A DNA stretch of 59,874 nt, taken from IMG/VR virus record IMGVR_UViG_3300004202_000003, positions 1 to 59,874 of that record; one strand, 5' to 3'. The translations under genes and the position numbers were made by a program. Under the pieces are notes generated by a model, which searched no databases, was not told the origin of the DNA, and saw nothing but the letters and a program-made list of their open reading frames with translations. Numbering within the stretch: the first letter of the stretch is position 1; each line of letters opens with the position of its first letter. The stretch comes from a virus. Taxonomy: Duplodnaviria > Caudoviricetes. Shown piece after piece: positions 21,787 through 43,000 of this stretch.

Positions 21787-21977
21787 GCAATGCGCCACTT
21801 CCGCAGCACCCGCATGCCATCACCGACTGGCAGGCCGTCGCGATGTTTTTTGCCGGCGTCATCACCGAAGAACGGCCGGACTACGCGCCGCTGATTTTTC
21901 AGGTCGTGGAGGATTTCACGACACCCATCACCACCACGGCCGGGAACGGCCAGAAAGGAATTGAGGCAACAGCATGA
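21783..21977 (+). CDS. Hypothetical protein
   Basis: ATGA coupling on both sides. Confidence 0.55.
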   Translation: MSNAPLPQHPHAITDWQAVAMFFAGVITEERPDYAPLIFQVVEDFTTPITTTAGNGQKGIEATA

Positions 21978-23131
21978 ACGCACCAGCAACCACCAAGGAA
22001 GTCGGGCCGGTATCGGCCTTCGGGAATTTTCTCGAAAAGTTCAAGCCGCAACTGAAGTTGGCCTTGCCGGCGCACATGAACGCTGACCGCATGGCGCGGC
22101 TCGCGCTGACGGCATTCAGCACGTCGCAGCAGCTGCAGAACTGCGAGCCGCGCTCGATCGCCGCCGCGCTAATGACCGCCGGCCAGCTTGGCCTTGAGCC
22201 TGGCGTCAATGGCGCCGGATTTCTGATCCCCTACGGCAAGACGTGCACTTTCGTTCCCGGCTGGAAGGGGCTGGTGGACCTTGTCTCGCGTTCTGGCCGC
22301 GGCACCGTCTATACCGGTGTGATCTTCAAGGATCAGGAATACACCTTCACCGACGGCGCCAAGCGCGACCTGATCATCCACAACGAAACCGACCTTGACG
22401 CGCCGGAGGACATCACCCACGCCTTTGCAATCGGATGGGTGAAGGATGCCAGCATGCCGATCATCGAACTCTGGACGGTAGCGAAGATCCGTAAGCACCG
22501 CGACAAATACAACAAAGTCGGCTCGAAGCATTACAGCTTCCGCGACTGGGAAATGTACTGCCGCAAGATCCCGCTGCTGCAAGTGCTCAAGTACATGCCG
22601 AGCAGCATCGAACTCTCGAACGCCATTGCGATCAGCAATGCCTCTGAAGCCGGACGCGGCGCGACGATCGACGGGTTCGGTGTCGTGATTGATGACGACG
22701 ACGACCAAGGCGGCGGAAATCAAGGGGGCGCGACGGAGAAAGAAGCGGCGGCCGCCTACCCACAAGACCAGTTCGACAAGAACATTACCGGCTGGAAGAA
22801 GCTGATTGCCGATGGCAAGAAGACGGCCGACCAGATCATCGCCATGGCCAACAGCAAGGCGCCGCTGACCGCCGGGCAGATCGCCGCCATCAAGAATACT
22901 TCAGCGCCTGGCGCCGATGGCTCCGCACAAGCAAGCAACGGGGGTGCGGGTGCGGCCGCGCAGAACCCCGTTGCCGTCACCTTCGCCCAGGTCGAGGCGA
23001 AGCTGCTCAAGTCCGACAGCATGGACGTCCTGGATCTCGCCGCCGATCTGATTGGAGAAGTCGCCGATCCGGCGCAACGCTCCGAACTTTCGGCCATCTA
23101 CAACAAGCGTAAGGAGGAATTGCAGGCATGA
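21974..23131 (+). CDS. recT: RecT-family single-strand annealing protein
   Basis: LALPAHMNADRMARLALT, LQNCEPRSI, AGQLGLEPG..G.GFLIPY, GWKGLVDL..RSG, LKYMPSSIE. Confidence 0.9.
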   Translation: MNAPATTKEVGPVSAFGNFLEKFKPQLKLALPAHMNADRMARLALTAFSTSQQLQNCEPRSIAAALMTAGQLGLEPGVNGAGFLIPYGKTCTFVPGWKGLVDLVSRSGRGTVYTGVIFKDQEYTFTDGAKRDLIIHNETDLDAPEDITHAFAIGWVKDASMPIIELWTVAKIRKHRDKYNKVGSKHYSFRDWEMYCRKIPLLQVLKYMPSSIELSNAIAISNASEAGRGATIDGFGVVIDDDDDQGGGNQGGATEKEAAAAYPQDQFDKNITGWKKLIADGKKTADQIIAMANSKAPLTAGQIAAIKNTSAPGADGSAQASNGGAGAAAQNPVAVTFAQVEAKLLKSDSMDVLDLAADLIGEVADPAQRSELSAIYNKRKEELQA

Positions 23132-26162: not shown

Positions 26163-26395
26163 ACAAGCCCAAGACACCCACCATCCCCATGTCGGCCGTC
26201 AAGAGTAGCCAGGTCGAGAGCATCGGCCACATGGGCGACACGCTGGCCGTCAAGTTCAAGAGCGGTCCCTCGGTTTACCACTACCACGGTGTCACGGCCG
26301 CGCAGTTCGAGGCCATGCAAAGGGCCGAATCGGTAGGCAGCTACCTGCATCAGCACATCAAGCCGAAGCACAAGTTCACGAAGGTGACCCCATGA
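26159..26395 (+). CDS. KTSC domain protein
   Basis: VKSSQVESIG...LAVKFKSG..YHYHGV.......AESVGSY....IK. Confidence 0.88.
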   Translation: MNKPKTPTIPMSAVKSSQVESIGHMGDTLAVKFKSGPSVYHYHGVTAAQFEAMQRAESVGSYLHQHIKPKHKFTKVTP

Positions 26396-27243
26396 GTGCA
26401 ATCAAACACCGTCGCATCTACGTCGCGTCGTCATGGCGCAACCCGATACAGCCGGAGATCGTCGCGGCGCTGCGCGAGGCCGGGCATGAGGTCTATGACT
26501 TCCGCAATCCGGCGCCAGGCAACAAGGGCTTCTCGTGGTCCGAGGTCGATCCGAACTGGCTGAATTGGGATCCCGGCACCTTCGCCGACAAGCTGAATAC
26601 GCACCCCGTTGCCGCGGCCGGCTTCGGCTTCGACAAGGCCGCGCTTGACTGGTGCGATACCTGCATCCTCGTCCTTCCCTGCGGGCGCAGCGCGCACCTG
26701 GAACTCGGGTACGCCGCCGGCCAGGGCAAGGACACCTATGTGCTGCTGCATCCGGACAAGTTCGAGCCCGAGTTGATGTATCTGCTCAACACTGCCTGCG
26801 CGACATCGATCGATCAGATCATCGACTGGATGGCCGAGCGGCAGCCGGCCGATGTACGGCGCTGGCACGCTGAGAACGGCGCCCACTTCACGCGCCCGGC
26901 AGGTCACGCGCTGCGCCTGTTGCGCGAGGTCGTCGAGCTCTGTGTCGCGGCCGGCGCCAGCGAGGATGAGATCGTTGATCACGCCAGCACAGAACTCGGA
27001 AAGGCATTGTTTCGCGAAGAATTCGGAGGCGACCCGGCGGCGGTACCGGGCGAGGTTGCGGACTGCGCGATACTGCTCGACATCTTTGCTCACCGCGCCG
27101 GCATCGATCGGCATGCCGAGACGCGCAAGAAGCTGGCCGTGCTGTGGGAGCGACAGTATGTGCCAGACGCGGATGGCGTGCTGTATCGCCTCGACGACAT
27201 GAGCGAGATCGTTCGGCGCGAAGCCGCGGCGCAGGAAGCATGA
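26392..27243 (+). CDS. Nucleoside deoxyribosyltransferase-like domain fused to a MazG-like domain
   Basis: IYVASSWRN..D..ALDWCD..VLPCGRSAHLELGYA.G; C-terminal LLREVVEL...EVADCAILL. Confidence 0.7.
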   Translation: MSAIKHRRIYVASSWRNPIQPEIVAALREAGHEVYDFRNPAPGNKGFSWSEVDPNWLNWDPGTFADKLNTHPVAAAGFGFDKAALDWCDTCILVLPCGRSAHLELGYAAGQGKDTYVLLHPDKFEPELMYLLNTACATSIDQIIDWMAERQPADVRRWHAENGAHFTRPAGHALRLLREVVELCVAAGASEDEIVDHASTELGKALFREEFGGDPAAVPGEVADCAILLDIFAHRAGIDRHAETRKKLAVLWERQYVPDADGVLYRLDDMSEIVRREAAAQEA

Positions 27244-29051
27244 AGCGCGATACGTTCTCCGGTGTGTCAGACGACGTGCGCGAGATCCGCCACTTTCACC
27301 TGTTCGCCGGACTCGGCGGCGGCGCCAAGGGCTTCAACAGCGCATCGGCCAGGGTCGGAAACATGGTCGGCAGGTTCCGCTGCATCGGCGGAATCGACGT
27401 CGACGCCGCCGCCATGCGCGACTTCGAGCGGCTGGCCGGCGTGCGCGGAACCGTGCTCGACCTGTTCGATCGCGACCAGTACCGCGACTTCCACGGCAGC
27501 GAGCCGCCGGAAGGCTGGCGCGAGGCGGAAGCGGCAGACATTCGCACGGCCGCCGGCAACGAGCGTCCGCATATCGTCTTCCTGTCGGCACCCTGCAAGG
27601 GCTTTTCCGGGCTGCTCAACGAGACGCGGAGCAAGACCGCCAAGTACCAGGCGCTGAACCGGCTGACGCTTCGCGGGGTCTGGCTGATGCTGGAGGCCTT
27701 CGCCGACGAGCCGCCCGAACTGATCGTCTTTGAGAACGTGCCGCGCATCGCGAATCGTGGCCGGTATCTGCTCGATCAGATCACCGCCCTGCTGCGCGCC
27801 TACGGTTACGCGGTGGCCGAAACCACGCACGACTGCGGCGAATTGGGCGGACTGGCGCAGTCGCGCAAGCGCTTCCTGCTGGTCGCGCGTCACGTCGAGA
27901 AGGTGCCGCCGTTCCTGTACGAGCCCGACAAGAAGCGCCTGCAGCCGGTCGGTGCTGTGCTTGATCGCATGCCGCTGCCTGGCGCCGCCGCCGGCGGGCC
28001 GATGCACCGCATCCCGTCGCTGCAATGGAAGACATGGGTACGGCTGGCATTTGTCGAGGCCGGTAGCGACTGGCGCAGCCTGAACAAGCTCGCCGTCGAG
28101 GATGGCGTGCTGCGTGACTTCCTGATCGTGCCGGACTACCACCGCGGCTATCTCGGCGTGAACAAGTGGGACGGGCCGGCCGGGACCATCGCAGGACACA
28201 GCCGCGCCACCAATGGAAATTTCTCGATCGCGGATCCCCGGGCACCAGCCGGCGCGCTGGAGTACCAGCAGTATGGCGTCTGTGGCTGGCAGGAAACGAT
28301 GGGGTCGGTGATCAACGTCAAGAGTCCAGGGCAGGGCACGTTCAGCATTGCCGACCCGCGCCACACGGGGCCGGCGAAGCACAGCAACGAATTCCGTATC
28401 GTCGCCTTCGGTGAGCCGGCAATGGCGGTCACCAGCGCGCACGGATCCGGGCAGTGCGTCGCCGATCCACGCCGCGCCGGCGAGGGCTTCGGCAAGTACA
28501 TGGTCACCCGATACAGCGAGGCCGCCGGTACGGTGATCTCGGGCAGCACAACCGGGCAGGGAGCCTATGCGGTGGCCGATCCTCGACCCAATGGCATCCC
28601 CGAGCATGGCGACCACTACCTGACCGGCGGGCACTACGGCGTCACGCGCTGGGATCAATCGACCGGTGCCGTGTCATCGGCGGCCTGCCACGATAACGGC
28701 CGCTGGAGTGTCGCGGATCCGCGCATGCCGGAACCCAGCGACAAGCTGGTGGCAGTGATTCGCGCCCTCGACGGAACCTGGCATCGCCCCTTCACCACGC
28801 TCGAGCTCGCCGCCCTGCAATCGCTGGTCGAGCCGGAGGAATACCTTGAACTCGACGGCCTCTCGGACAGCGACTGGAGGGAACGCATTGGAAACGCTGT
28901 TCCGCCAAGCGCCGCGGCGGCCATCGCCGGCGTCATGGGCACCACGCTGCTGCTCGCCTGGTCGGGCGAAACCTTCATGCTCTCGGCGTCGCCGATCTGG
29001 GTTCGGCCAGTGGCGGTGGCGCTTTCGGTGGCGACAGGAGAAGCCGAATGA
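27240..29051 (+). CDS. DNA cytosine-5 methyltransferase
   Basis: HLFAGLGG, SAPCKGFS, FENVP, QSRKR, RIGNAVPP; five internal ADPR repeats. Confidence 0.92.
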   Translation: MKRDTFSGVSDDVREIRHFHLFAGLGGGAKGFNSASARVGNMVGRFRCIGGIDVDAAAMRDFERLAGVRGTVLDLFDRDQYRDFHGSEPPEGWREAEAADIRTAAGNERPHIVFLSAPCKGFSGLLNETRSKTAKYQALNRLTLRGVWLMLEAFADEPPELIVFENVPRIANRGRYLLDQITALLRAYGYAVAETTHDCGELGGLAQSRKRFLLVARHVEKVPPFLYEPDKKRLQPVGAVLDRMPLPGAAAGGPMHRIPSLQWKTWVRLAFVEAGSDWRSLNKLAVEDGVLRDFLIVPDYHRGYLGVNKWDGPAGTIAGHSRATNGNFSIADPRAPAGALEYQQYGVCGWQETMGSVINVKSPGQGTFSIADPRHTGPAKHSNEFRIVAFGEPAMAVTSAHGSGQCVADPRRAGEGFGKYMVTRYSEAAGTVISGSTTGQGAYAVADPRPNGIPEHGDHYLTGGHYGVTRWDQSTGAVSSAACHDNGRWSVADPRMPEPSDKLVAVIRALDGTWHRPFTTLELAALQSLVEPEEYLELDGLSDSDWRERIGNAVPPSAAAAIAGVMGTTLLLAWSGETFMLSASPIWVRPVAVALSVATGEAE

Positions 29052-31102: not shown

Positions 31103-31132
31103 CCATGCCGGCACAAACTCTTGGAGACAGCA

Positions 31133-32014
31133 ATGGCTGACCACACCCACATCGAATGGACCGACGCCACATGGAACATCATCACCGGCTGCTCTGTCGT
31201 CTCGGCCGGATGCCGACATTGCTACGCGATGAAGCTGGCCGGCACCCGTCTGCAACACCACCCGTCGCGCGCCGGGCTCACGATCGACACCAAGGAAGGT
31301 CCGGTCTGGAACGGCCAGGTGCGGTTCAATGAGCAATGGCTTACCCAGCCGCTCGCCTGGAAGCGCCCGCGCAAGGTATTTGTCTGCGCGCATGGCGACT
31401 TGTTCCATGAGTCGGTGCCGTATGAGTGGATCGAGAGTGTCTTCGCTGTAATGATCCGCTCCCCGCAGCACATATTCCAGGTACTGACGAAGCGGCCGGC
31501 GAGGATGCGAGAGTTCTGCAAGAGCCGGGGCTACTTACTGCCGAACGTATGGCTCGGCGTCAGCGTCGAGGATCAGGCCGCCGCCAACGAGCGCATTCCG
31601 CTGCTGCTGCAAACACCTGCCGCCGTGCGCTGGATCAGCGCGGAGCCGCTGCTGGGTCCGGTCGATCTAGCCCACATCATGCGCAACTCACCTGACGATG
31701 AATGGACATTTTGCGACAACGCCCTGACTGGTTTCCGAGCACACAAATGCGGGGGCCATCACGGTGCGCGCCTCGATTGGGTCGTCGTCGGCGGCGAGTC
31801 GGGCGCCAATTCGCGGCCGATGGTTCTCGGTTGGGCAAAGGACATCGTGCGCCAGTGCCAGGAAGCCGGCGTTCCGGTGCTGATGAAACAAGTCGGCGCG
31901 AACCCGACGAACCGCGAAGGCGAACCACACAAGATCAGCGACCGCAAGGGCTCGATCATGGAGGAATGGCCCGAGGTTCTGCGAGTAAGGGAGTATCCGG
32001 AGGCGCGGCCATGA
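31133..32014 (+). CDS. Phage Gp37/Gp68 (DUF5131) family protein
   Basis: IEWTDATWN..TGC..VS.GC.HCYA, DLFH, FQVLTKRP, NVWLGVSVE, SAEPLLG, WVVVGGESG. Confidence 0.92.
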   Translation: MADHTHIEWTDATWNIITGCSVVSAGCRHCYAMKLAGTRLQHHPSRAGLTIDTKEGPVWNGQVRFNEQWLTQPLAWKRPRKVFVCAHGDLFHESVPYEWIESVFAVMIRSPQHIFQVLTKRPARMREFCKSRGYLLPNVWLGVSVEDQAAANERIPLLLQTPAAVRWISAEPLLGPVDLAHIMRNSPDDEWTFCDNALTGFRAHKCGGHHGARLDWVVVGGESGANSRPMVLGWAKDIVRQCQEAGVPVLMKQVGANPTNREGEPHKISDRKGSIMEEWPEVLRVREYPEARP

Positions 32015-32214: not shown

Positions 32215-32390
32215 CGCCAGCCCAGCGAGTCGACAAGATCCTCGCCGAAGCCGTCGGCCGTGATCTGAATTCATGGGAACGCTTCGAGTTCCTTCCGAGC
32301 ATCAAGCAGCGCGCGACGCTGACGGAGAAGCAGGAGAAGGTGCTAGCCGACATCGAGGTGCGGGTATTCGGGAGCGGCGATGATGACTGA
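32211..32390 (+). CDS. 59-aa hypothetical protein (not in ORF track)
   Basis: MTPAQRVDKILAEAVGRDLNSWERFEFLPSIKQRATLTEKQEKVL...; ATGA coupling. Confidence 0.6.
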   Translation: MTPAQRVDKILAEAVGRDLNSWERFEFLPSIKQRATLTEKQEKVLADIEVRVFGSGDDD

Positions 32391-33087
32391 TCGCTACCCG
32401 ATTCCAGAGTTCCTGCGCCGGCAGCCGCAGGTCGAGCGCAAGGCGGTCGAGCGCCCGATGCTGTTCAGCGCGCCGATGGTCCGCGCCCTGCTCGCCGGCA
32501 CCAAGACGCAGACGCGGCGCGTGATGAAACAGCAACCTATTGAAGGAGGCCCAATTGGAGGGTTTGCTTTCGTGGATGGAGTTTGGTGCGCTCTATCCAG
32601 ACGCGACGGCAGCATTCACAGCAAGCTGGACCGGAAGTGCCCCTACGGCAAGCCCGGCGACCGGCTATGGGTGCGGGAGGCGTGGGCTGCTTTCGGTCCT
32701 TTCAAGGACGGGATGCACTGTCACTACCGAGCAACGGATGAGCATCCGGAAGCGTCGAAATGGAAGCCGCCGATCCACATGCCGCGCGTCTATTCGCGCA
32801 TCCTGCTCGAAATCGTCGCCGTCCGCGTCGAACGGCTGCAGGACATTAGCGAGGCGGATGCGGTGGCCGAGGGAATCGTTAGCGAGAACGTTATCGTCGG
32901 CTGCAATTGCTACGGCGGGCATCACGTCGAGGAAAGCGCTGATCGGTATTTCTTCGATGGATGCGCTGAAGAAGGTTTCGAGTCTGCCGTCGATGCCTAT
33001 CGCGCGCTGTGGGAGTCGATCAACGGCCCCGATTCATGGGCGGCAAATCCGTGGGTCTTTGTGATTTCGTTCCGGAGGGTTGAGTAA
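32380..33087 (+). CDS. ASCH/PUA-like phage protein
   Basis: ERPMLFSAPMVRALLAGTKTQTRR, CPYG.PGDRLWVRE, VERLQDISE.DA.AEG, ANPWVFVISF. Confidence 0.8.
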   Translation: MMTDRYPIPEFLRRQPQVERKAVERPMLFSAPMVRALLAGTKTQTRRVMKQQPIEGGPIGGFAFVDGVWCALSRRDGSIHSKLDRKCPYGKPGDRLWVREAWAAFGPFKDGMHCHYRATDEHPEASKWKPPIHMPRVYSRILLEIVAVRVERLQDISEADAVAEGIVSENVIVGCNCYGGHHVEESADRYFFDGCAEEGFESAVDAYRALWESINGPDSWAANPWVFVISFRRVE

Positions 33088-33491
33088 TGCCGGCAAACCA
33101 CTGCATCCCACACACAGAGGCAACGAAAGAAAAGATGCGGAAGGCGCATCTTGGGAAACCGGCGCCGAAGTGGTACACATTTGACAGCGCCAAGGGTAGC
33201 CGACAGAAGCGACCGCCCGAGCGAAAGTTTGTGCTGGTCCGGATGGCAAGCCTAGAGCCCGGTTGCTTGCCCGAGGGTATTGCAGTTGGCTACCGAAAAA
33301 ACGCAGCGGGCGACAAGCAATCTCCGTATTTCGTGGTGCCGGGCCTGCACACCGGCACCGTGCTTGCGTGGTGCGATTGCCTGCCGGAAGGCTTTACGTG
33401 GCCTAACGACCAAGCTCAGGGAGCCGGAGGCGGCCTTATCGCCGGAGGCTCCGCTGGAACGACGGGTTCGACCACACGGGAGGAAACATGA
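33087..33491 (+). CDS. Hypothetical protein with N-terminal NUMOD3-like motif; C-terminus encoded by attC-A
   Basis: HTEATKEKMRKAHLGK; TAATG coupling. Confidence 0.6.
   Translation: MPANHCIPHTEATKEKMRKAHLGKPAPKWYTFDSAKGSRQKRPPERKFVLVRMASLEPGCLPEGIAVGYRKNAAGDKQSPYFVVPGLHTGTVLAWCDCLPEGFTWPNDQAQGAGGGLIAGGSAGTTGSTTREET
33401..33472 (-). mobile_element. attC site A (72 bp)
   Basis: Minus strand: R'' GTCGAAC, 5 nt, L'' GTT(C)CAG(C), hairpin, L' CCTGAGC, 6 nt, R' GTTAGGC. Confidence 0.85.
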
Positions 33492-33853
33492 AGGTCAAAG
33501 TATTCCCATACCGCGAAAGGATTGGGATGGGCAACATGATGTGGAGCGGCCCGCGCTTTGAAATGCGGGGCGGCAAATTCCCCAAGGAACACCCCGTCGG
33601 TGGCGGTTCGTGGGATGCCCCAGACGGCCAAGGTGGGAGCGGCGAGAACATCAAAGCGTTCCGAGCGCGCGGCTATTGGGCGTCGTGCTTCCCGGAGGGC
33701 GACGGAATAACTTGGAAGCCGTTGAACGGCCAAAGCGATACCCAGTGCATGAGCGATATAAGAGACTGTTTCGTCGAGTGGGATGTGCATTGGGCTGTGG
33801 GGTCGAACGTTGAAGGTAACAGGCCGCCGCGTGAGGCGGGCGAGAAAACGTGA
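33488..33853 (+). CDS. Cassette-borne hypothetical protein (cassette 33407-33807)
   Basis: GGGAGG RBS; reads into attC-B. Confidence 0.7.
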   Translation: MKVKVFPYRERIGMGNMMWSGPRFEMRGGKFPKEHPVGGGSWDAPDGQGGSGENIKAFRARGYWASCFPEGDGITWKPLNGQSDTQCMSDIRDCFVEWDVHWAVGSNVEGNRPPREAGEKT

Positions 33854-33891
33854 GGCGATTGCCGGCGGTCCTGTTGACCGACGGGTTGGCC
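33802..33891 (-). mobile_element. attC site B (90 bp)
   Basis: Minus strand: R'' GGCCAAC, 5 nt, L'' GGT(C)AACA, hairpin, L' TGTTACC, 6 nt, R' GTTCGAC. Confidence 0.85.
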
Positions 33892-33912
33892 GGCTGGACA
33901 TTGGAGGCAGAC

Positions 33913-34365
33913 ATGACCGGAATAGAGCTGATTGCAACAGAGCGGATGCGGCAGGTAAAGCAGGAGGGTTGGACGCCTGAGCATGACGACGAACACGACG
34001 ACGAATCGCTGGCGCTTGCGGCAATTTGCTACGCAGCACCAATTCCGATCTTCCGGCGCAAGGGCGGGGAGACGTACTTTGAGTTTCTCGATCCGTGGCC
34101 GGATTCGTGGGACGTTGAATGGGACAAGCGACCGTTCGACAGCTACAACGGGGAGCCGCGAGAGCCGACACCAGCGGAGCGGATACGGATGCTGGTGAAA
34201 GCCGGGGCGCTGATAGCGGCAGAAATCGACAGGCTGCAACGGGCTGCACTGAAGACGCCCAACGCACAAGCTCAGGGAGCCGAAGGCGGCCTTATCGCCG
34301 GAGGCTCCCCTGGAGCGACGGGTTCGGCGGCGCATGTTGCGGAGAGAGGACAGAACGATGAGTAA
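33913..34365 (+). CDS. Cassette-borne phage protein (ER.RQ...EGWTPEHDDEH...LVKAGALI.AEI.RL family; cassette 33808-34262)
   Basis: GGAGG RBS; recognisable phage motif; reads through attC-C. Confidence 0.75.
   Translation: MTGIELIATERMRQVKQEGWTPEHDDEHDDESLALAAICYAAPIPIFRRKGGETYFEFLDPWPDSWDVEWDKRPFDSYNGEPREPTPAERIRMLVKAGALIAAEIDRLQRAALKTPNAQAQGAEGGLIAGGSPGATGSAAHVAERGQNDE
34257..34328 (-). mobile_element. attC site C (72 bp)
   Basis: Minus strand: R'' GCCGAAC, 5 nt, L'' GCT(C)CAGG, hairpin, L' CCTGAGC, 6 nt, R' GTTGGGC; 57/60 identical to site A. Confidence 0.87.
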
Positions 34366-34804
34366 GACGGAAGAATTTGCGAAGATGATGAGCGAAATAC
34401 ACCACGACCTTCTTGTTGTGATGCAGGCGGCGTTCATCGAATGGCAGCACGGCAACGGAGCCGATGCGGCGATGACGTGGATTGCCAACACGCTCGATGG
34501 CCCAGGGTTGATACCGGACAAAAACGCGCCATACGGCAAAGAGGCGCAAGCGTGGTTTGACGCCAACCAAGCGCACCCGATGCCGCCGTGCTCGGTTTGC
34601 GGTAGGCCATCGAACCAACTTGGCGGCGGTGTTTCCGCGTGCAGCGTGGAGCATTTCAGGCAGGCCAAGGACAAGACGCCGAACGGCGAGGTGAGGGGCG
34701 CGAGCGTGACGGCGCAGCCGGCATGCGAAGCGTCCAGCCGCGAAGCGGCGACCTCGACCGTGGTGTTAGAGCCCACGGCAAAGGAGACGAAATGTTCGGA
34801 GTGA
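34358..34804 (+). CDS. Cassette-borne phage protein (Ead/Ea22-region-like motif, Cys/His cluster; cassette 34263-34683)
   Basis: MQAAFIEWQHG....AMTWIANTLDGPG; CSVC..CSVEH; reads through attC-D. Confidence 0.7.
   Translation: MSKTEEFAKMMSEIHHDLLVVMQAAFIEWQHGNGADAAMTWIANTLDGPGLIPDKNAPYGKEAQAWFDANQAHPMPPCSVCGRPSNQLGGGVSACSVEHFRQAKDKTPNGEVRGASVTAQPACEASSREAATSTVVLEPTAKETKCSE
34678..34771 (-). mobile_element. attC site D (94 bp)
   Basis: Minus strand: R'' CTCTAAC, 5 nt, L'' GGT(C)GAGG, hairpin, L' CCTCACC, 5 nt, R' GTTCGGC. Confidence 0.85.
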
Positions 34805-35058
34805 AGATCATCGAGAGCTTGCTGATGGTGGAAGACGGCGAGCCCTACGAAGTGCGGCGCACCTGGCGCGAGCGGCTGTTCTCTCTTCCGTGGCGACCGA
34901 TGCGAGCAACGCGGACAGTGGTTCCAAAAGTGCCGAAACGTGAAGCGGTTCGGATGCCTGACGGATCGCTGGTGATGCACCCGGCAATGGCAGCAGAACT
35001 GCGCCGATACAAAGCCGCTGGCGGACATAGTTTCGGTGGGCCACGTAATGGGCTCTAA
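34792..35058 (+). CDS. Cassette-borne hypothetical protein (cassette 34684-35058)
   Basis: AAGGAG RBS; stop TAA lies within the CTCTAAC core. Confidence 0.7.
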   Translation: MFGVKIIESLLMVEDGEPYEVRRTWRERLFSLPWRPMRATRTVVPKVPKREAVRMPDGSLVMHPAMAAELRRYKAAGGHSFGGPRNGL

Positions 35059-35071
35059 CGCAAAGTAGCCA
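35053..35071 (-). mobile_element. Simple recombination site heading the cassette array (attI/secondary-site-like)
   Basis: Minus strand TGGCTAC-TTTGC-G|TTAGAG; no partner L''/R'' arm seen. Confidence 0.6.
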
Positions 35072-35212
35072 CCCGAAAAACCCGCGAACTACACCTGGTA
35101 GGTTTCCATTCCGATATAGGACAGTGAAATACACCATGACCCCCTGGCTCTCTCCTGACGACTATCTGCGCCGGACAATGGCAGCTACGTGGCAGCGGGA
35201 ACTTTTCTGACC

Positions 35213-35563
35213 GTGCAAACGCTCGATCTCAACCAAGCCGCCGCCTTCCTGCGTTTGCACCCGCACACGCTGGAAGCCAAGGCGCGCGCCGGAGAGATAC
35301 CGGGAGCAAAGCCTGGCAAATGCTGGGTTTTCCTCGACGTTGATCTGGCCGACTGGTTGCGAGCACAATACCGGGCAAAAGAACCCAAGGAGGAAGCATG
35401 TCGCTCTACAAGCGTGGTCGCATCTGGTGGTGCGAGTGGGAGGTCGGCGGCGAAAGAGTTAGAGAATCGACTTACACGTCCGACCGCAAGGCCGCGCAGG
35501 AATTCCACGACCGCCGCCGTGCTGACATTTGGCGCGAGACAAGGCTTGGCGAAACCCGGATAG
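35213..35563 (+). CDS. xis: Excisionase-like HTH protein
   Basis: LDLNQAAAFLRLHP.TL...AR.GEIPGAK.GK.W.F...DL..WL; overlaps int; start GTG 35213 or 35189. Confidence 0.8.
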   Translation: MQTLDLNQAAAFLRLHPHTLEAKARAGEIPGAKPGKCWVFLDVDLADWLRAQYRAKEPKEEACRSTSVVASGGASGRSAAKELENRLTRPTARPRRNSTTAAVLTFGARQGLAKPG

Positions 35564-36546
35564 CCACCTGGGACGAAGCCGCACTGGCTTGGGTTGACGA
35601 ACACGCGCAGCACAAGAAGAGCTACGAAACCGACCGCACGCGGCTGCTGTGGCTCACCAAGCGGCTGACCGGGCAATCGCTGGCCGCCATCACCACCGAC
35701 GCCCTGCTCGGCCTGCGCAAGACGCTGCTGAAGGAACGCGAGCCGGCCACCGCCAACCGGTATCTGGCCGTGGTCTCTGCCGTGCTGCACTATGCCCACG
35801 CGAAATCCATCATCGGCGCCGTCCCGAAAATTCCCTACCTGCCCGAAGCCCGCGAGCGGTTTCGCTGGCTCACGCGCGCCCAGGCCAAGGCGCTGATCGC
35901 CGAGCTACCGGAACCTCTGGCTGCAATGACCCGCCTCGCCCTCGCAACGGGCCTGCGGCGGGCGAACGTCACCGGCTTGACATGGGACAGCCTCGACGAG
36001 GCCCGCCGTGTCGCTTGGGTCTGGCCAGACGAAGCCAAGGCCGGAAAGCCGATCGCGGTCCCGCTGAATGAGGACGCGCTGGCCGTGCTGAAGCAGCAGC
36101 GCGCCTTGCCGACGACATGGGACAAGAAGGGAGAGAAACGCAGAGACCCGAACCACGTCTTTACATACCGTGGACAGCCGGTATGCCACACCACCACGAA
36201 GGCGTGGGAACTGGCTCTGGAGCGCGCCGGCATTGCGCCGGGCTTCACCTTCCACGATCTGCGACATACCTGGGCATCGTGGCACGTCATGGGCGGCACG
36301 CCGCTGGAAGTACTGCGGCAGCTGGGCGGGTGGGCTGGGATGGATATGGTGCTGCGGTACGCGCACCTAGCGCCGGGCTATATCGCCGGCTATGCGGAGA
36401 ACGCATCCCTCACAATTTCCCCCACAGTGGGGAGCGATGTTAGTGAGAACTCTCGCGAAGAACTAGAGGGGTTGGGGTGGCTGATGGGACTCGAACCCAC
36501 GACAACTGGAATCACAAACCCGCGACCGAAGAAGAAAGCCGCTTAG
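35398..36546 (+). CDS. int: Phage tyrosine integrase
   Basis: N-terminal arm-binding region; TGLRRAN (R), AKAGK (K), FHDLRHTWAS (HxxR), LGGW, RYAHL (Y). Confidence 0.95.
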   Translation: MSLYKRGRIWWCEWEVGGERVRESTYTSDRKAAQEFHDRRRADIWRETRLGETRIATWDEAALAWVDEHAQHKKSYETDRTRLLWLTKRLTGQSLAAITTDALLGLRKTLLKEREPATANRYLAVVSAVLHYAHAKSIIGAVPKIPYLPEARERFRWLTRAQAKALIAELPEPLAAMTRLALATGLRRANVTGLTWDSLDEARRVAWVWPDEAKAGKPIAVPLNEDALAVLKQQRALPTTWDKKGEKRRDPNHVFTYRGQPVCHTTTKAWELALERAGIAPGFTFHDLRHTWASWHVMGGTPLEVLRQLGGWAGMDMVLRYAHLAPGYIAGYAENASLTISPTVGSDVSENSREELEGLGWLMGLEPTTTGITNPRPKKKAA

Positions 36547-36650: not shown

Positions 36651-37037
36651 TCAAGCGCCCTCTTCCGTCCACTCCGGTAGCGGCACGGTCTTCCCGGCGA
36701 GTGCGTGGGTACAGTCGGAGAGGAACTGAATCTGCCCGTCCTTCACGAACGAATGGCAGATGCCGCACTTGAACCGCGACGGCTTTTCGCCTTTCGCTTC
36801 CTGCTCGGCGTTGTAGGTGCACCAGCAATTGTCGCCAGGCTTGAAACCCGGAACGTGGCACCCGCAGCGGACCAGCACGGACGGGCTGAATGTCGGACGC
36901 ACGGCATCGCCATTCCATGTCCAGCGAGGCCCGTTCCCAGCGCCGTGATAGATCAGGTGCGTATCGCCGCATCCCGGGCACATGAAGACCAGCCCGCCGC
37001 CCTCGACGTCGCGCAGGAGCTTAGATAGCGCGCTCAC
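36651..37037 (-). CDS. DUF6527-like Cys/His protein
   Basis: FMCPGC..H, WTWNGD..PTFSPSVLV, CHSFVKDGQIQFLSDCTHALAGKTV; GTGA coupling to giant gene. Confidence 0.75.
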   Translation of the reverse strand: MSALSKLLRDVEGGGLVFMCPGCGDTHLIYHGAGNGPRWTWNGDAVRPTFSPSVLVRCGCHVPGFKPGDNCWCTYNAEQEAKGEKPSRFKCGICHSFVKDGQIQFLSDCTHALAGKTVPLPEWTEEGA

Positions 37038-40000
37038 GGCGTCGGCCGCCCCATCGCCTTCCGCTCCTTGCCCTTGTATTCCTCGACGGCGGCGTTCTTC
37101 TTGCCGACGATCTCGGCCACCTTCTCGTCGAGCTCGCGCTTGGTCATGCCCTGCCGCCCGTAGTCCCTGGCAGCCTGCCGCTGCTCGTCGCCCAACTCCT
37201 TGAGCTTGCCCTTCATATCCAGCACCGCATTGCGCTGGAGCGTGTCGACCGGGTAGCGCTCGAGCTTCAGGCCGAAGCCGGACGCAATGGCCTCGGGAAC
37301 CGGATAGGCGCGGCCCAGCGGATCCTCCTTGCCCTTGACGGCGTTGTCGATCTTGGTGCCAGCCCAAGTGCCGGAGTAGGGAATCGGCACGTTCGGCGCG
37401 AAACTCTTGTAGAAGTGCCCGCCGACCTTGGCCGCCTTCTCCACCCATGTGTCGGTTTCCTTGGTCAGATCCTTGCCGGTGAAGGCCGACTTGTTGACCA
37501 GGAACTCGGCCGCGATGATCAGCGGCCCGCCAGGCATCAGCGGCTGCGGGATCATCGGCAGCGCCGTCTTGTCCTGGCCGTAGTCGACCACGTCGCCGAC
37601 CGGGATCCAGCGGCGCACGTCGAGGAATACCGGATCGCTGGTCGTCCTGCCGTCGCGCAGCTTCGATTCCCTGTTCCACGGCATGCGGACCAGTTTCGGC
37701 ACGATGCCCCAGAGTCGGCCGGCCTTCTCGTCGGGCAGGTAGGCGCGCTCCTTGTCCTCGTCGCCGTCGGCACCCAGCATGGCGTAGGCCAGCGCATTCA
37801 GGCCGCCGGCCACCAGCATGTACTTGGCGATCTTCCACGGCTTCCGGGCCGCCGTCTCGGTCAGCATCGGAATCGCGCGGTAGGCAAAGGCGATGAACGG
37901 CATCGCGGTGCCGCGCATGGCGTTGATCCACGGCGCGTTGATGTGGTAGTCGAGGAAGGCCTTGCGCGCCAGCTTGCCGGCCTCCTGATCGGTCTTCCCC
38001 TCGTCGATGCTCTTGAGGAAGGCGGCCAGCCGGAATACGGAGTCCTCAGCCTGGTAGTAATCCTGCGCCTTGGTCACCACCGCGCCGGTGACGCGGCCCG
38101 CCGTCGATTGCTTGGCCGCTGCCTTGGCGCCGGCCCACGCCTCGCCGAACTGGCCATGCAGCGCCAGCGACATGATCGCGCTCACCTTGAGGATAGCGGC
38201 CTCGTCGTCGGCCATACCGACCTCTTCGCGCAACTGCTGCAACAGGGGTTCGAGAACTTCCTTCCGGAGTTCGTGCGTGGTGAACATGCCCTGCGTGGCG
38301 CCGGAGTCCTCGTAGCGATCGAGAAGCGCCTTGGCGTCCATGTCACCGTTGGCCGCCGCCACCATCAGCCGCACCGCGGCGATCGCATCCCGGGCCCCGA
38401 CGTCGTGCATGTCGGCCATCACGAAGTTGCCCATGATGTTGTTGACGTGCGTCGTCGGTGTCAGCGCGGTCTTCGATAGTTTCCATGCACGCAGGATCGA
38501 GGCGTAGGCCGCGCCGAAGGGTTCGAAGCGGCCGGCGCTGATCTGCCTGACGTCGTTCCAGATCGGGCCAGGCACTACCATGCCGGCCAGCGCGCCGAAC
38601 TTGAACACGTTGGTACCGGGAATCTTCGCCGTCGGCACCGTCACCCATTCGTCGGGCGTGAAGGCGCGCATCATGGAATCCGAGGCGTCGGCCATCTGCA
38701 GGCCTTCGTCTTCGGCCTCTTCCGGCGTCTTGGCGTACTCGTCGGCTACCCACTCATGGAAGCGCCCGACTTCGATGTCGCGGTTCATCATGAACAGCGT
38801 GCGCGCCACGGCGTACTTGGCTTCGTCGAGCTCGCCCATCATCGTGCGCTCGTCCTGGGTGAAATCGCGCCAGAGGGTGATACGGTCCGCAGCCTTGCGC
38901 GCCCGGATCTCCCAGACGCCCTCGACCTTGTAGCCGGACAAATTGGGCGGAATTGCCGTGCCCTCGGCCACGAAGGCAAAGCGCCCGGCCTCGTTCTTCA
39001 GCACCTGCACGCGCTTTCCCTTCATTTCGTCCTGCCACCAGCCCGGCGCCGAGTGAATGCGATCCGGGTCGACGTCCATCTTCAGGCCGCGGCCCTTGTA
39101 CTGGTCGCCGAGGATCTTGATCGCCTTGGCACGCTCGGCCTTCCAGGTCTTGTCGTCGGTGTTCAGGTCATACTTGGCATAGCTGCGGTGCAGGTAGGCG
39201 AGGAAGTTGCGTTCTGCCGTCTCGGCATCCAGCTGGCCAAGGCGTACCGCCTCGATCGTCAGTTTGGCGATCTGGATCTTGATGTCCTTCAGCACCTGCT
39301 GGGATTCCGGCGGCAGCTGCGCCATCAGGCGATCGGCTTCGGCGCCGCGGTTGTTCAGCCACTGGTAGGCGACGCGCGACTGCGCGCGATCGAGTGTCAT
39401 CAATCCCTCGACGAACGTCTTGGTCTGCCTGGCGGCTTTCTGCTGGGCCGTCTGCATGCCGGTGCGGCGGTCGACGTAGGACTCGTTGAGGCCGTAATCC
39501 GACACCAAGCCAGCCTTGATGCCCTCGGGCATCTTGCCGCCCAAGAAGGCCATCAGCTTGTCGTAGGCCGGGCCGGTGATCTTGGCGGCGAGTTCACCAC
39601 CAGCCTTGCGCAGGATGGTATCGAGGATGCCGGTACGGGGTTCCTGTGGTTGAGCGCCAGCGGCGCGGCGCGACTCAAGGATGCTTGGGTTCTCCGGATC
39701 GAATCGCCCGGTGTTCGACGTCGCGCTCTTGATCTGCACCGGATCGCGAACCATCAGGTTCTTGATGCCGAGTTCCTTGATCCAGACACCATCGAACCCC
39801 TGAGCCTTGAGGTAGGCGCGCACCCGCGGATCTTCTTCGAGGATGTCCCAATTCCCGGTGGCGACGTCTTGCGCCAGCAGGGAGGCCTTCTCGGGCAGCA
39901 TGCCGTTTGCGCGCATCGCCTGATCGAAGCGAATGATGTCCTGGCGGTTCTCGTAGTCGAACACCCGCTCGGCACGCACATAAACCGGAAGCACGTTCGG

Positions 40001-43000
40001 CTGCGCGTCCGCGATCTTCTCGGGTGACGTGGCTGCAAAACTTCCCGCGAACGACGGGCTCGGCGACAGGAAGATCCCGCCGTCCTGTTTGCCGCTCCTG
40101 AATACCGTAAAGTCCTTGCCGGTGCCGTGATAAAGCACCAGCGGCTTGCCGTCAGCGCGAGTTATTTTCGAACCACCAAACCACCGCTTGAACGCCGCAG
40201 ATGCTGTATCAACGGCACCGAAAGCCGACGCTGGCGCTACCGCACTTCGCGACGCCGCCACCGTCCCGCTCGGCATCGTCTCGGCGCCCAGGTTGTCGCC
40301 GCGCCGCATGTAGGCCGATGCCTGCGCCAGCAAGTCGTGGAGCTCTGCCGTAGTGACGTCAATCGCAACACCCGCCGCCCTGGCCATGTCGCGCAGCCAT
40401 TGCCGCACTACCGCGCGGACGTAGCCGAACAGGGTGCGCCCTGGGTCAGTCTCGGCCATGCGCGCCAGCACTTCCTGCGCGACTTCCTCGTCGCTGGCTT
40501 CTGGGTAGCGCAGGCGCACGGCTTCGACCGTTGCATAGTCCGGGTGTCCCGGTGCATAAATATCCTCTTCGACCGCACCTTTCGCCCGGGCCGCGCGCAT
40601 GACTTCCTTCAGGACGCCTTTGAACCGGTCGCCCATCATCTGCGCCAAGCCGAAGTGGCCGACCGCCTCGTGCATCAGCACCTGCCAGGCGCGGCCGGTG
40701 TTGATCTGGCCATTGGCGTGCTTCAGATTCATCGTGATCAGGTAGATCAGGCCGGCGTCATCATGGAACACACCCTCGGCGAATGGGCTGGGGCGGAAGC
40801 GCGCAGGTATGTCGGCGACGGTCCTGACAACACGGATGTTCAGCGCAGCGGCGCCGGCAAACTGCTTGCGAAACTTGTCGACGACGGACTGGATGGCGTG
40901 GGTCGACTCGGTAGTCACGGGATTGGTGGGATTGCCTCGCGACTCAAGGATGTTCGGGTTCGTTGCGCTGAAGGCTCCGGTGTTTGATGTGGCGCTCTTG
41001 ATCTGCGTCGGCTTGAAAACGGCGTATGTCGTGCCGCCCTCTTGGTTCTCGATCACAAGTCCATCATGCCCGAGCTTGCGCAACGCCGCCTCGCTCGGAA
41101 CGTCGCCAAGATTCCACGCCATCGAGTCGATGTAGTACGGATTCTTCATCGACAAGAAGACCGGCATTACCTGCCCGCCATCCTCGGCATCTTCCCCTGC
41201 GTAGATTTCTGCATGTTCGCTACTGTCGGAGAAGAAGAACATTGCCTCGTCGCTGAACTTCGCTGACGAGAACTTTGAGAAATCAGCCTTTGTGCCGTGA
41301 TACGCGCGCAGCGGCTTACCGTCAGCATCAACAACGGCGCTCTTTCCGAACCATCGCTTGAACTCCGCCGACTCGGTATCCACCGCCTTGGTCGACTTGG
41401 TTGTGGCACGCGACTCCATGCCGCCTTCCGGCTTATCGACCACCACCATGCGCGCATTGACACCGGTATTGACCGGCAGCGACGGGTCAAGGAAGGTTCC
41501 GTCTTCCAGCTTCTCCGACGTGCCGCCGACTTCATCGAGCCAGTTGCGGAAGGCCTGCGCTTTCTTGTCCTGGCCGAAGAACACGCCCTCACCCATGATC
41601 GCTACCAGACGCCCGCCCGGCTTCAGAAGCGTGTAGGCATGCTGGACGTGCTCGGCATCGCGGCGATCGCTGAACGGCGGATTCATGATGATGCGGTCGT
41701 AGCCGCTGTTGTAGCCGCTCTTTCTGACGCCCGTCAGTTCGTCGCGGTCGCGCCACTCGGATTGCCTGGCGTCCTTGCCAAGCGGGATGAAACCGACGCG
41801 GTTGCTGCCCATGCCACCGCTGCCGCTCATGATGCCCTCGACGCCATCCTTGTCGCGGAACACGTCGCCGTAGGTAAAGCCGCGCGGGTTCATGTCCATG
41901 AAGTCGGAACCGACCAGGCGGAAGCCCTTGGCCTCCAGCAGTTCGCGACGGTCGACAGCCATTTCGACGACATCCGGATCAACGCCGGCGGCGCGGATCC
42001 GCTCGGCGATATGCCCCCAGCCGGCGGAAGGCTCGAGCACGGACATGCCTTCCTTGACGTCGGCAGCCTGCACCAGTTCGTCGGCGACGCTGGCCGGCGT
42101 CGGGAAGAAGTCAAGGCCGTCGTTCTTGCGCCCGATCATGGCGCGCTCCATCTGCTTGATCTTGTCGACCTCAGGCGGCGCGGCACGCAAGTCCATGAAC
42201 TCGCGCAGGGCGGCGCGAAGCTCGGCCGGGGTTTCGATCCCGATGGCCTTCAGCCTGGCGCGCTCGGCCCGCACGTTCTCGAACAGGTAGGGCATCGAGA
42301 TCCTGTGACTGGAGAACTCCTTGACCTTGGCGACGACTTCCTCGCCGAAGTCCGGCGACAGCGTGATGCGCTTGTCGTCGTCGCCCTTCCAGATGCCGGC
42401 CTCTTGGGCGGCGCTGGGGCTCATGATGATGATGTTCTGGCCTCGCTTGAACGGCAGGACAACGGCCTTGCCCTTGAAGCCGCTGCGCTTGATCGCTGTC
42501 TCGGCGTCATCCTTCGACGCGAAGATGGCCGGCGCACTGTCCTTCTTCTTGAAGGTAGATACCTGGTGCAGATGCTCCTTGGCGAAGGCGAGATAGGCAT
42601 TGCTCACGTCGTCGGCAACCTTCAGTAGCGCAGCCCCTACCTTCTTGGCGCCGTCGATGTCCAGCATCTGCCGGCCCATGGTCGCCAGGTCAGAGCGGAA
42701 AGCCGTGTAGCGCGGGAAGTCGACATAGTCGGCGGTCTCGGCGGTCGGCGGCGCACTGCGGTGCTTTTCCTGATCGCCGTAGTTCGGGAACTTGGCGCGC
42801 AGTTCGTTGGCCTTGGCGGTGTGCAGGAAGCCGCGCAGCATTTCTACCTGCGCCTTCTGCCGTACGCGATCGAGGAATTTGGTTTTCCCGCTCTCGATGG
42901 CCTGGGCGATGTTGCGCATGGTCTTGGCCAGCGCCTTGTCGGAGTTCGCGGCAGCCTCGGCGTTGGCGGCCATGCGAGCGCGGCGGTCGGTGTTCTCCTT

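Follow-up and report, generated by a model that had tools for sequence, protein, structure and literature searches.

In the textbook view, integrons belong to bacteria, and their cassettes hold genes without promoters that are transcribed from the side of the integrase. The clusters named CALIN, with at least two attC sites on one strand, at most 4 kb apart and no IntI nearby (Cury et al. 2016, PMC4889954), have been described also in phages by Qi, Rajabal, Ghaly, Tetu and Gillings (2023, Front Microbiol, PMC9892861), who reported 17 phage CALINs, each of at least two sites, with recombination of the phage attC sites by IntI1 in five of the six tested, and who give co-oriented cassettes as the typical layout. 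Complete integrons in phages are named in the same work for Vibrio anguillarum phages, a P1-like phage and a Shewanella prophage and, compared by the headings of that paper alone, appear as fragments or mosaics of bacterial integrons. Integrons with an inverted integrase have been named for Treponema and others (Cury et al. 2016, PMC4889954).

The array described here lies in the window, i.e., the whole stretch of DNA that was analysed (59,874 nt, Caudoviricetes, IMG/VR record IMGVR_UViG_3300004202_000003). Like the phage CALINs of Qi et al. (2023), it holds attC sites without an IntI on the genome, and a cargo including phage-type genes; its rarity was overestimated in the initial annotation, integrase-less phage attC clusters having already been published. 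However, the window-type arrays differ from those CALINs by a systematic reversal of gene polarity, observed over about 30 viral contigs, and by the array being part of a coupled operon; the main text of Qi et al. mentions neither bottom-strand genes nor a retained attI, and in the published accounts consulted the reversed polarity and the retained attI were not found in print. Two viral contigs related in layout (L013 and L066) possess cassettes together with attI and intI, as the published complete phage integrons do, and resemble the inverted-integrase integrons in that intI has the orientation of the cassette genes; in the latter, however, the integrase is flipped relative to attC, whereas in L013 and L066 intI lies, as usual, on the strand of the bottom-strand model and the genes are flipped relative to their attC. 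The sedentary chromosomal integrons of the Gallionella-MAG order, which consist of IntI, attI and homogeneous attC arrays, have several traits in common with the window: the attC family (one model), complementary boxes, the motif at the attI junction and cassettes bounded at AA|C. But the window has no intI, its genes occupy the bottom strand where the chromosomal ones occupy the top strand, and expression of the window genes must come from an attI-distal promoter; in the phage arrays, moreover, 46 of 83 cassette genes end inside the attC of the neighbour.

Sites, cassettes and terminus of the array

Table 1. Features of the array and its surroundings, in positions of the window
Feature	Position	Strand	Details
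Gene C (backbone)	33087..33491	+	from the ORF list; last 28 codons read from attC site 1
attC site 1	33401..33472	+	R2 81.1 bits at 33399-33474; hairpin of cassette D
Cassette D	33407..33807	+	401 nt; ORF D 33488-33853; boxes 33466-33477 and 33797-33808, 11/12
attC site 2	33802..33891	+	R2 44.3 bits at 33800-33893; hairpin of cassette E
Cassette E	33808..34262	+	455 nt; ORF E 33913-34365; boxes 33885-33895 and 34253-34263, 9/11
attC site 3	34257..34328	+	R2 86.7 bits at 34255-34330; hairpin of cassette F
Cassette F	34263..34683	+	421 nt; ORF F 34358-34804; boxes GTTCGGCG (34321-34328) and CGCCGAAC (34677-34684), 8/8
attC site 4	34678..34771	+	R2 25.7 bits, E 5e-6, at 34676-34773; hairpin of cassette G
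Cassette G	34684..35058	+	375 nt; ORF G 34792-35058; boxes GTTAGAGCCCA (34765-34775) and TGGGCTCTAAC (35049-35059), 11/11
attI-like core	35057..35075	+	terminal AAC without a hairpin, then GCAAAGTAGCCACCCG
Excisionase (HTH_17), xis	35189..35401	+	PF12728, E 7e-11; phrog_1840
Phage tyrosine integrase	35398..36546	+	PF00589, 96.5 bits; no TIGR02249 match
Probable attP core	36473..36517	.	45 nt in common with the 3' end of a host tRNA; lies within the 3' part of int

The covariance model R2, built from relatives and run with filters off over both strands of the 59.9-kb window, gave 35 matches at E<=10, of which only four reached E<=5e-6; all of these are on the + strand and coincide with the four palindromes that the initial annotation had taken for attC sites, the match ends lying 2 nt outside each. 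The next-best match (17.2 bits, 28449-28554, minus strand) is without AAC/GTT, and the two strongest sites, when scored on the minus strand, fall to 14.5 bits (34255-34330) and 9.9 bits (33399-33474). Sites 1 and 3 are 91% identical, and the 24-nt core of site 1 was found again in seven other viral contigs; site 2 has a long, variable terminal structure, and site 4, the weakest of the four and also with a long terminal structure, is missed by R2 under default filters and detected with the filters off only. With four sites in 1.4 kb and no IntI across the genome, the array is a CALIN in the above sense.

AAC and GTT bound the palindrome in all four sites. On the + strand the AAC stands on the 5' arm and two single-base bulges on the 3' arm, opposite the AAC, which bears out the proposed layout of extra bases; in attC sites, such extrahelical bases are found, when the recombinogenic (bottom) strand is folded, on the arm that faces the AAC (Nivina 2016). 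Owing to this rule and to the geometry of family sites relative to intI (see below), the + strand of the window sites is, by sequence criteria, the bottom, recombinogenic strand. By single-sequence folding energy, the + strand of site 4 is the sole one that folds better than shuffles (z -2.46), sites 1-3 not doing so (z -0.1 to -1.2); the energy being uninformative for these three, the structural support rests on covariation across relatives. No Rfam family matched at the gathering threshold over the whole window or at E<=10 over 32800-35400, the matches to mir-330 (21 bits) and NiCo (17 bits) being rejected as chance.

The boundary C bases at 33407, 33808, 34263, 34684 and 35059 delimit the four cassettes, and in each of them the flanking boxes pair across the cassette's own gene, as had been claimed from the sequence. 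This cross-matching, put forward as the signature of cassettes, extends to the whole site family: R' of one site and R'' of the following one pair for 5 nt or more past GTT/AAC in 43 of the 61 cases of neighbouring sites, versus the same pairing within one site in 4 of 76 and between random pairs in 3.1% of 5,524. Cassette D is arranged in the order C, hairpin 1, GTT box, Shine-Dalgarno sequence and ORF D, with the end ...GGTCGAA, and in cassette G the TAA stop of ORF G arises from the boundary TAA|C. A 16-nt inverted repeat (33394-33409 and 35033-35048, 88%) links both ends of the array, and about one such pair is estimated to be expected by chance per 2.6 kb.

The cargo belongs to phage gene families, in agreement with its first description: ORF E matched nine PHROG families (best E 1.3e-19) and ORF F phrog_18739 (E 6e-14). 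Homologues were also found for D (3 loci), F (4) and G (3, weak), none of them with an R2 site in the surrounding 1.2 kb; they therefore give no test of the boundaries, showing instead that these genes exist outside cassettes as well. A non-cassette homologue of ORF D (in L241) has its own stop at the position of the AAC box of the window.

The array ends in what may be regarded, from its likeness to integron junctions, as an attI-like site. Its core agrees at 13 of 16 positions with the consensus of eight intI-adjacent integron junctions and is the single best of the 119,716 16-mers of the window, the runner-up 16-mer after an AAC scoring 9. Cassette G, as it adjoins attI, is probably the newest cassette. 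At the other end, gene C is not a cassette, since no site (no R2 match) lies upstream of it; in a relative (L050) without gene C and the array, the ASCH-like gene directly abuts xis, and alignment to this xis places the true start of the window xis likely near 35216. The ASCH-like protein itself was found in two distant viral loci only (L010, L011), without sites.

These genes belong to a long rightward operon of the phage that runs towards attI (RecT, RecE ... DUF5131, ASCH-like, C, D-G, xis, int). The recombinases of the window are one tyrosine and no serine enzyme, and the statement that the sole site-specific recombinase is an ordinary phage integrase holds: it is of the tRNA-targeting type, and the best six-frame match to TIGR02249 in the window, 10.5 bits versus a cut-off of 265, leaves no IntI. 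Of the components of a complete integron, intI is absent, attI is present by likeness, and the genes are not on the top strand. No tRNA gene is found in the window; loose ends at the probable attP core continue into sequence resembling a tRNA, the circular permutation of the source contig falls here as well, and the core has a depth of 95-149 in all four runs versus 0-66 in every other bin. The integrase is 60-70% identical to those of 14 viral contigs, mostly without arrays, and only 4 of the 34 contigs with related phage integrases have any R2 site; the array is therefore not fixed in this phage lineage.

Relatives with and without an integron integrase

The 81 sites of the family, 57 to 127 nt long with the variation taken up by the terminal loop, have AAC in 79 and GTT in 78 cases. 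Their cells are paired to 93.6%, versus 70.9% in shuffles, with 306 double-change cells, double changes in 15 of the 20 pairs of the family structure, and pairing as high in none of 500 shuffles. The fold of R box, unpaired spacer, L box and variable terminal structure is conserved among them, the sequence only little. The same structure is present in 115 chromosomal sites, with the same G-T pair on the same strand in 102. In one chromosomal contig an IntI (L023:4129-5103, TIGR02249 418.7 bits, over the cut-off) is followed by R2 sites, and L023 has even a 23-nt core in common with the window. Among 151 sampled genomes of the Gallionella-MAG order, R2 matched at E<=1e-5 in 102, and IntI exceeded the cut-off in 61. 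For the bacterial contigs with a listed R2 match at most 16 kb from an IntI over the cut-off, the match was on the intI strand and on the 5' side of intI, i.e., in the bottom-strand orientation, in 23 of 23. On this evidence from model matches and gene neighbourhood, the window sites belong to the same attC family as the sites beside true IntI genes; the family as such stands next to IntI, its members in the window do not.

Homology confined to single cassettes, with its ends at AA|C, occurs in the related phage arrays. The viral contigs L013 and L066 have one common cassette, whose identity of 92-93% sets in right behind the upstream AAC and runs as far as the downstream one, between unrelated flanks, and the same AA|C-bounded pattern was found for L015 versus L066 and for the chromosomal L028 versus L031. 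Both L013 and L066 encode a full IntI directly after attI; these are 71% identical to one another, use a second attI type, and are 59-64% identical to nine of the ten compared chromosomal IntI and 44-45% to the divergent L030. Neither such relatives with a complete integron, IntI included, nor the attI-like core had figured in the initial annotation. A scan for the attI motif was followed by a search of 41 viral loci, and 18 of these have the integrase-less layout too, with different cassettes. No common cassettes were seen in the first 62 phage intervals (all-against-all blastn at E<=1e-10, and tblastx), versus five homologous pairs in the enlarged set of 218 intervals.

Cassette E, which gave the best comparison for the window itself, has 90% nucleotide identity to the viral contig L157 from 33885 (GTT) to 34267 (AAC+3) and no further, both hairpin cores being unrelated (53% and 60%). 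Boundaries unrelated to the AAC/GTT cores, named beforehand as evidence against cassettes, were thus not seen here, as the homology ends at the boxes; however, as it begins only with the GTT box, the upstream hairpin is left outside, contrary to the AA|C model. No close relative of the phage was found with the 20-nt anchor 35094-35113, whose matches among metagenome contigs were two unrelated chance ones. Neither an excision joint nor an alternative array order occurred in the assembled contigs of four runs, contigs being unable to show rare forms. A joint 31777 -> 35432 (21-nt sides; X1, X3) was discarded as of the kind arising from repeats or other organisms, and the uncovered parts of the array in X3-X5 have no meaning at a depth of 2-3.

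Gene polarity and the explanations of the array

The orientation of all ORFs on the attC bottom strand, opposite to usual cassettes, had been remarked from the sequence and is confirmed by codon scores. In the window, three of three scored intervals favour the + (bottom) strand, among them cassettes D (+18.9 sense vs -10.1 antisense) and F (+16.3 vs -9.3). The bottom (model) strand carries the gene in 46 of the 48 intervals from phages, whereas the intI-adjacent chromosomal intervals have them on the opposite (top) strand in 54 of 62 and on the bottom strand in 8; in 18 further viral arrays, 47 intervals scored sense, 4 antisense and 3 unclear. ORFs D-G, all on the + strand, are marked by Shine-Dalgarno sequences and by stops that overlap starts. 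After the hairpins, the Shine-Dalgarno sequence with the start codon comes at a median of 23 nt. With the genes on this strand, an integron promoter in the vicinity of attI cannot drive their expression.

It is likely that the region is an integrase-less integron platform in a temperate phage, with the cassettes D-G, an attI-like end and IntI provided in trans. Each cassette would consist of the attC hairpin followed by its gene, with the attI-like end placed just upstream of xis-int. The IntI, coming from a chromosomal integron of the host or from a co-resident phage with an IntI of its own, would fold the + (bottom) strand of each site and cleave between the A and C of the AAC box, so that the cassettes, presumably mobile to this day, could be excised in circular form (401, 455, 421 and 375 nt), new ones being inserted at the attI-like site. 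Expression of D-G would be ensured by read-through from the phage's own rightward operon.

A frozen relic, i.e., an array left by an IntI-bearing ancestor (such as L066 and L013) or captured whole, in which no recombination occurs now and the cassettes are ordinary phage genes with hairpins as mere decoration, is rather unlikely. The phage lacks IntI, site 4 is weak, cassette E and its L157 copy differ in the upstream hairpin, implying that a process other than AA|C exchange has acted, and the four runs' contigs hold no array variants, all of which would suit a relic; but the 8-12 nt of box complementarity, useless except in circular form, are kept by all four cassettes, the attI-like core is kept as well, and the recurrence of the layout in viral loci with differing cassettes favours turnover over decay. 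Recombination by an enzyme of the phage, either the tyrosine integrase with Xis or RecT/RecE acting on the hairpin arms and IntI being uninvolved, seems very improbable. The array does immediately precede xis-int, both here and in L051, L048 and L072, RecT and RecE are encoded, and the exchange at both boxes shown by the comparison of cassette E is what recombination on short conserved arms would produce; however, the integrase has a tRNA-type attP core of its own and no IntI signature, 30 of the 34 contigs with related integrases are without sites, the site family is found beside IntI in every one of the 23 bacterial contigs, and the array ends in an integron-type attI core.

That the hairpins are RNA elements of the operon transcript, serving its processing, stability or translational coupling, and that their likeness to attC is secondary, can hardly be credited. 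They do lie on the sense strand, with the translation starts at the short distance given above, and the non-Watson-Crick pairs are G-U on that strand in 73 of 81; but the same G-T is kept on the same DNA strand in 102 of the 115 chromosomal sites, whose genes and mRNA are of the other strand, the box pairing across genes and the AA|C-ended homology would be unexplained, and Rfam offers no family. Promoter-stem-loop cassettes of T4-type phages, REP/RAYT and the hairpin ends of IS200/IS605 were considered as possible analogues and set aside given the link to IntI.

Implications for phages and integrons

Beyond the single platform with IntI in trans, a wider view is put forward tentatively and with less than even confidence: phages of integron-bearing bacteria may keep a mirror-image pool of accessory genes shuffled by IntI of the host or of a phage, with attC before the gene and the gene on the bottom strand. 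Such arrays would form the tail of a phage operon and terminate in an attI facing an often absent intI. Ordinary phage genes would turn into cassettes in place, as suggested by D, E and F. IntI is SOS-induced, and the shuffling would therefore coincide with prophage induction. The opposite polarity might also serve as an expression firewall: a phage that captured host cassettes, of which many are anti-phage, would not express them, nor would the host integron express those of the phage.

The recombination sites that organise these phage genes are of the family found in the chromosomal integrons of the likely hosts; here the polarity is opposite, and an integrase is usually lacking. Should IntI act in trans, phages would gain a site-specific swapping of accessory genes beside homologous and illegitimate recombination, their evolution would be tied to the stress-induced integrase of the host, and a second, unexplored pool of cassettes would exist. 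The system is a natural test of how the strand choice of IntI constrains gene orientation, and the cassette and non-cassette copies of the D, E and F families may show the birth of cassettes.

The array and its place in the phage genome

The complete virus record of 59,874 bp clearly belongs to a phage, since head, portal, terminase, tail and internal virion proteins are encoded. The attC array occupies the distal end of a long rightward operon, which also holds genes for RecT and RecE, an HNH nuclease, DNA methyltransferases, and the DUF5131 and ASCH-like proteins, and its genes all lie on one strand with overlapping stops and starts. The methyltransferase and deoxyribosyltransferase-like genes of the early regions may have DNA-modification or anti-restriction functions, and a methyltransferase-looking stretch is present in the translation of the single large ORF opposite to int.

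Coordinates of the phage genes and of the genes around the attC array
Feature	Position	Strand	Remark
Major head protein	2131-3438		
Portal	5506-7632		
Large terminase	7636-9183		
Two large DNA methyltransferase genes and a nucleoside deoxyribosyltransferase-like gene	16305-17978, 26392-27243, 27144-29051		early regions
RecT and RecE	21974-24903		long rightward operon
DUF5131 protein	31121-32014		same operon
ASCH-like protein	32380-33087		same operon
Gene C (backbone)	33087-33491	+	
ORF D	33488-33853	+	
ORF E	33913-34365	+	
ORF F	34358-34804	+	
ORF G	34792-35058	+	
Excisionase			downstream of gene G
Tyrosine integrase	35398-36546		after excisionase
3,895-aa ORF	37034-48721	-	directly downstream of int

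Site 1 is repeated directly as site 3 over 70 nt with 91% identity, and the 24-nt core of the two occurs in exact copies in seven other viral contigs, always flanked by ...YAAC-G and CGGGTT..., with compensatory stem changes. A covariance model built from nine copies of this site (R1) revealed same-strand arrays of further, far more varied sites in the seven contigs, and a second model (R2) was made from 50 of the sites so found. Run unfiltered over the whole window, R2 matched exactly the four palindromes that the initial annotation had claimed as attC sites, and nothing else of note. The fold is strongly backed by covariation across 81 sites; single-sequence folding energies of the window sites were not significant, and no family in Rfam corresponds to these sites. 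In two metagenome runs (X1 and X3), some short contigs share with the window only the hairpin core of site 1 (33429-33468), both flanks being unrelated, and therefore other cassettes with the same core are present in the same samples.

Scanning one genome per species for the 24-nt core yielded eight MAG contigs. In one of them, 60 kb long and from a Gallionella MAG, the sites follow a gene that the integron-integrase model TIGR02249 scores at 418.7 bits against a cut-off of 265. The match of this gene (L023:4129-5103; G006:C50:56605-57620) covers model positions 1-279 and then, after a change of frame, 279-314, which may reflect either a frameshift close to the end of the gene or an assembly error. 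Among the 151 genomes sampled from the order of this MAG, R2 matches at E<=1e-5 were found in 102 and IntI over the cut-off in 61, both tallies including one genome flagged unpublished (G033).

Strand of the sites and polarity of the genes

Among the best 150 of 686 R2 matches, 23 contigs carry an over-cut-off IntI with a site within 16 kb, and in 23/23 the site lies on the intI strand, 5' of intI. Because integron cassettes read away from intI and the sites are on the intI strand, R2 is a model of the bottom strand. This assignment agrees with the rule of Nivina (2016) that on the bottom strand the extrahelical bases stand on the arm opposite AAC, the bulges in the window being on the 3' arm of the + strand. 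A conserved G-T pair is found on the same strand in 73/81 phage and 102/115 chromosomal sites, and for this reason belongs to the DNA strand that folds and not to a transcript.

The polarity of the genes was scored as codon log-odds per between-site interval, with training on 49 long phage ORFs. The model (bottom) strand was favoured in 46/48 intervals of the first eight viral sources (the window and seven viral-contig loci) and in 13/14 of short MAG contigs, whereas it was favoured in 8/62 intervals of intI-adjacent chromosomal arrays and 11/38 of genomic arrays without intI nearby, the phage-trained codon model, which could be weaker on bacterial arrays, still calling these clearly the opposite way. 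The cruder longest-ORF rule, undecided in 35/48 of the GC-rich phage intervals, agrees in the decided cases (12 to 1 in phage arrays versus 2 to 48 beside intI). The same strand was favoured in loci found independently by their phage integrase (5/7 intervals in L051, 5/5 in L066), and those found by the attI motif gave 47 sense, 4 antisense and 3 unclear intervals. As described by Richard et al. (2024) and Nivina (2016), the choice of the bottom strand fixes the cassette orientation for expression from Pc, and it is exactly this rule that the phage arrays break.

Concerning the cargo, the family of E has at least 510 viral occurrences, with a cassette context in only 4 of the best 80 loci; viral homologues of D, F and G number 3, 4 and 3 (weak), and no attC site was found near any of these homologues. 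Domain and phage-family searches assigned a function to none of the cassette genes. In the contig locus L241, the copy of D is homologous from the ATG onwards and terminates at a stop codon of its own, at precisely the position taken by the AAC box in the window. Among the 83 sense ORFs that are clear in phage arrays, the stop precedes the boundary in 29, coincides with it as TAA|C in 8 and lies beyond it, inside the neighbouring attC, in 46. D, E and F are of the last kind, overrunning by 46, 103 and 121 nt, so that their tails depend on context.

Cassette boundaries, attI-like ends and the recombinase

In 43/61 neighbouring pairs, R' of one site and R'' of the next are complementary for at least 5 bases beyond GTT/AAC. 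By the same measure, the figure is 4/76 for the two boxes of a single site and 3.1% for 5,524 pairs drawn at random across loci. Thirteen failing neighbours have a run below 4 nt; in most of them the gap is long and probably hides a missed site. Cassette E of the window (run 2, 9/11 overall) is among the thirteen. The box pairings reported earlier for the window (11/11, 8/8, 9/11 and 11/12), as well as the unit sizes, proved correct on re-checking.

The comparison of 218 intervals gave five homologous pairs.

Homologous cassette pairs and identity of their hairpin cores
Pair	Module	Upstream hairpin core	Downstream core	Remark
L013 / L066	92%	93%	66%	flanks unrelated
L015 / L066	85%	81%	50%	flanks unrelated
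L028 / L031 (chromosomal)	98%	98%	60%	flanks unrelated
Window cassette E / L157	90%	53%	60%	flanks unrelated
Window cassette E / L159	68%	43%	47%	too divergent for boundary mapping

In the first three pairs, the gene travels with the hairpin upstream of it in the model direction. Between the viral contigs L013 and L066, identity begins just after the upstream AAC and ends two bases past the downstream AAC; on this alignment, the shared unit is a cassette as defined by AA|C bottom-strand cleavage, with the attC before its gene. Cassette E and L157 are alike from the GTT box (33885) to AAC+3 (34267), with neither hairpin core in common, and both ends of the homology thus fall on core boxes, not at boundaries unrelated to the AAC/GTT cores, which the initial annotation had set against its reading. 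The hairpin of E has nevertheless been exchanged; as guesses, top-strand recombination may have occurred now and then, or RecT/RecE may have acted on the conserved arms.

Where it faces the integrase genes, each array terminates in an orphan ...AAC, which pairs with the last R' box and has no hairpin. In eight integrons with an adjacent intI, the 16 nt that come after this AAC are conserved (consensus GTAAAGTAGACACCCT); the window junction agrees at 13/16 positions, and L051, L015 and L012, all phage loci, at 12-13/16. No other of the 119,716 16-mers in the window matches as well, and among the 1,332 that follow an AAC the runner-up scores 9. A scan of viral contigs for the motif gave 44 loci, many of which are expected by chance at this pattern length; R2 sites stood upstream on the same strand in 18 of the 41 searched, and no IntI-like gene was found within 5 kb at any of the 44. 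One 37-kb viral contig (L111 and L112) carries at least two arrays, which run on opposite strands and each have the attI-like motif at their end; a third array may be present. The two ends of the window array are joined by an inverted repeat of 16 nt (88%), with one arm just before site 1 (33394-33409) and the other just before the terminal AAC (35033-35048); in the 2.6 kb searched, chance alone would give about one such pair.

As to the enzyme, the window encodes one tyrosine and no serine recombinase, and the tyrosine integrase gave no match at all to TIGR02249. A 45-nt segment inside the 3' end of int (36473-36517) has a depth of 95-149 in all four metagenome runs compared, its loose ends read on into tRNA-like sequence, and the circularly permuted contig of the source run ends there; it is probably an ordinary tRNA-type attP core that corresponds to the 3' end of a host tRNA, and the phage integrase is probably not the cassette enzyme. 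Any attC site occurs in only 4/34 contigs with related integrases. The integrase of L050 is 70% identical to that of the window; there the ASCH-like gene abuts xis without gene C or an array. This gene ends ...GGCATAAcc directly before the xis ATG (L050:5800-5815), and its R-box-like TAAC stands exactly where the window has the extra 2.1 kb.

L013 and L066 hold complete integrons (L013:8262-14350; L066:1-4068): a full IntI (479 and 453 bits) comes directly after array and attI, downstream of the cassette genes and on their strand, and intI could be read as the last operon gene. In L066, xis and then the phage integrase come after IntI. The gene order of the window is the same except that intI is missing. 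In integrons, intI is under SOS control. Identity between the two phage IntI is 71%, and against ten chromosomal IntI, a small sample, it is 59-64% for nine and 44-45% for the divergent L030; both loci use a second attI type, AAC-TTAAATTC...CGACACC.

Relation to known phage integrons

Qi et al. (2023) described integrons or parts of them in 21 phages, as well as 17 CALINs (attC clusters lacking an integron integrase), and found that IntI1 recombined 5/6 phage attC sites. A term search of the main text showed no mention of reversed genes, and our literature searches returned no phage case of bottom-strand cassettes or of an attI platform lacking an integrase. In the window, a temperate phage carries a genuine attC array whose end is attI-like and whose genes are reversed; this is a variant of the attC clusters already published for phages by Qi et al. 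(2023). IntI-driven insertion outside att sites, as presented in a preprint (10.1101/2022.09.11.507474), could seed arrays in phages, and the putative recombination of the window array is likely to be performed by IntI in trans.
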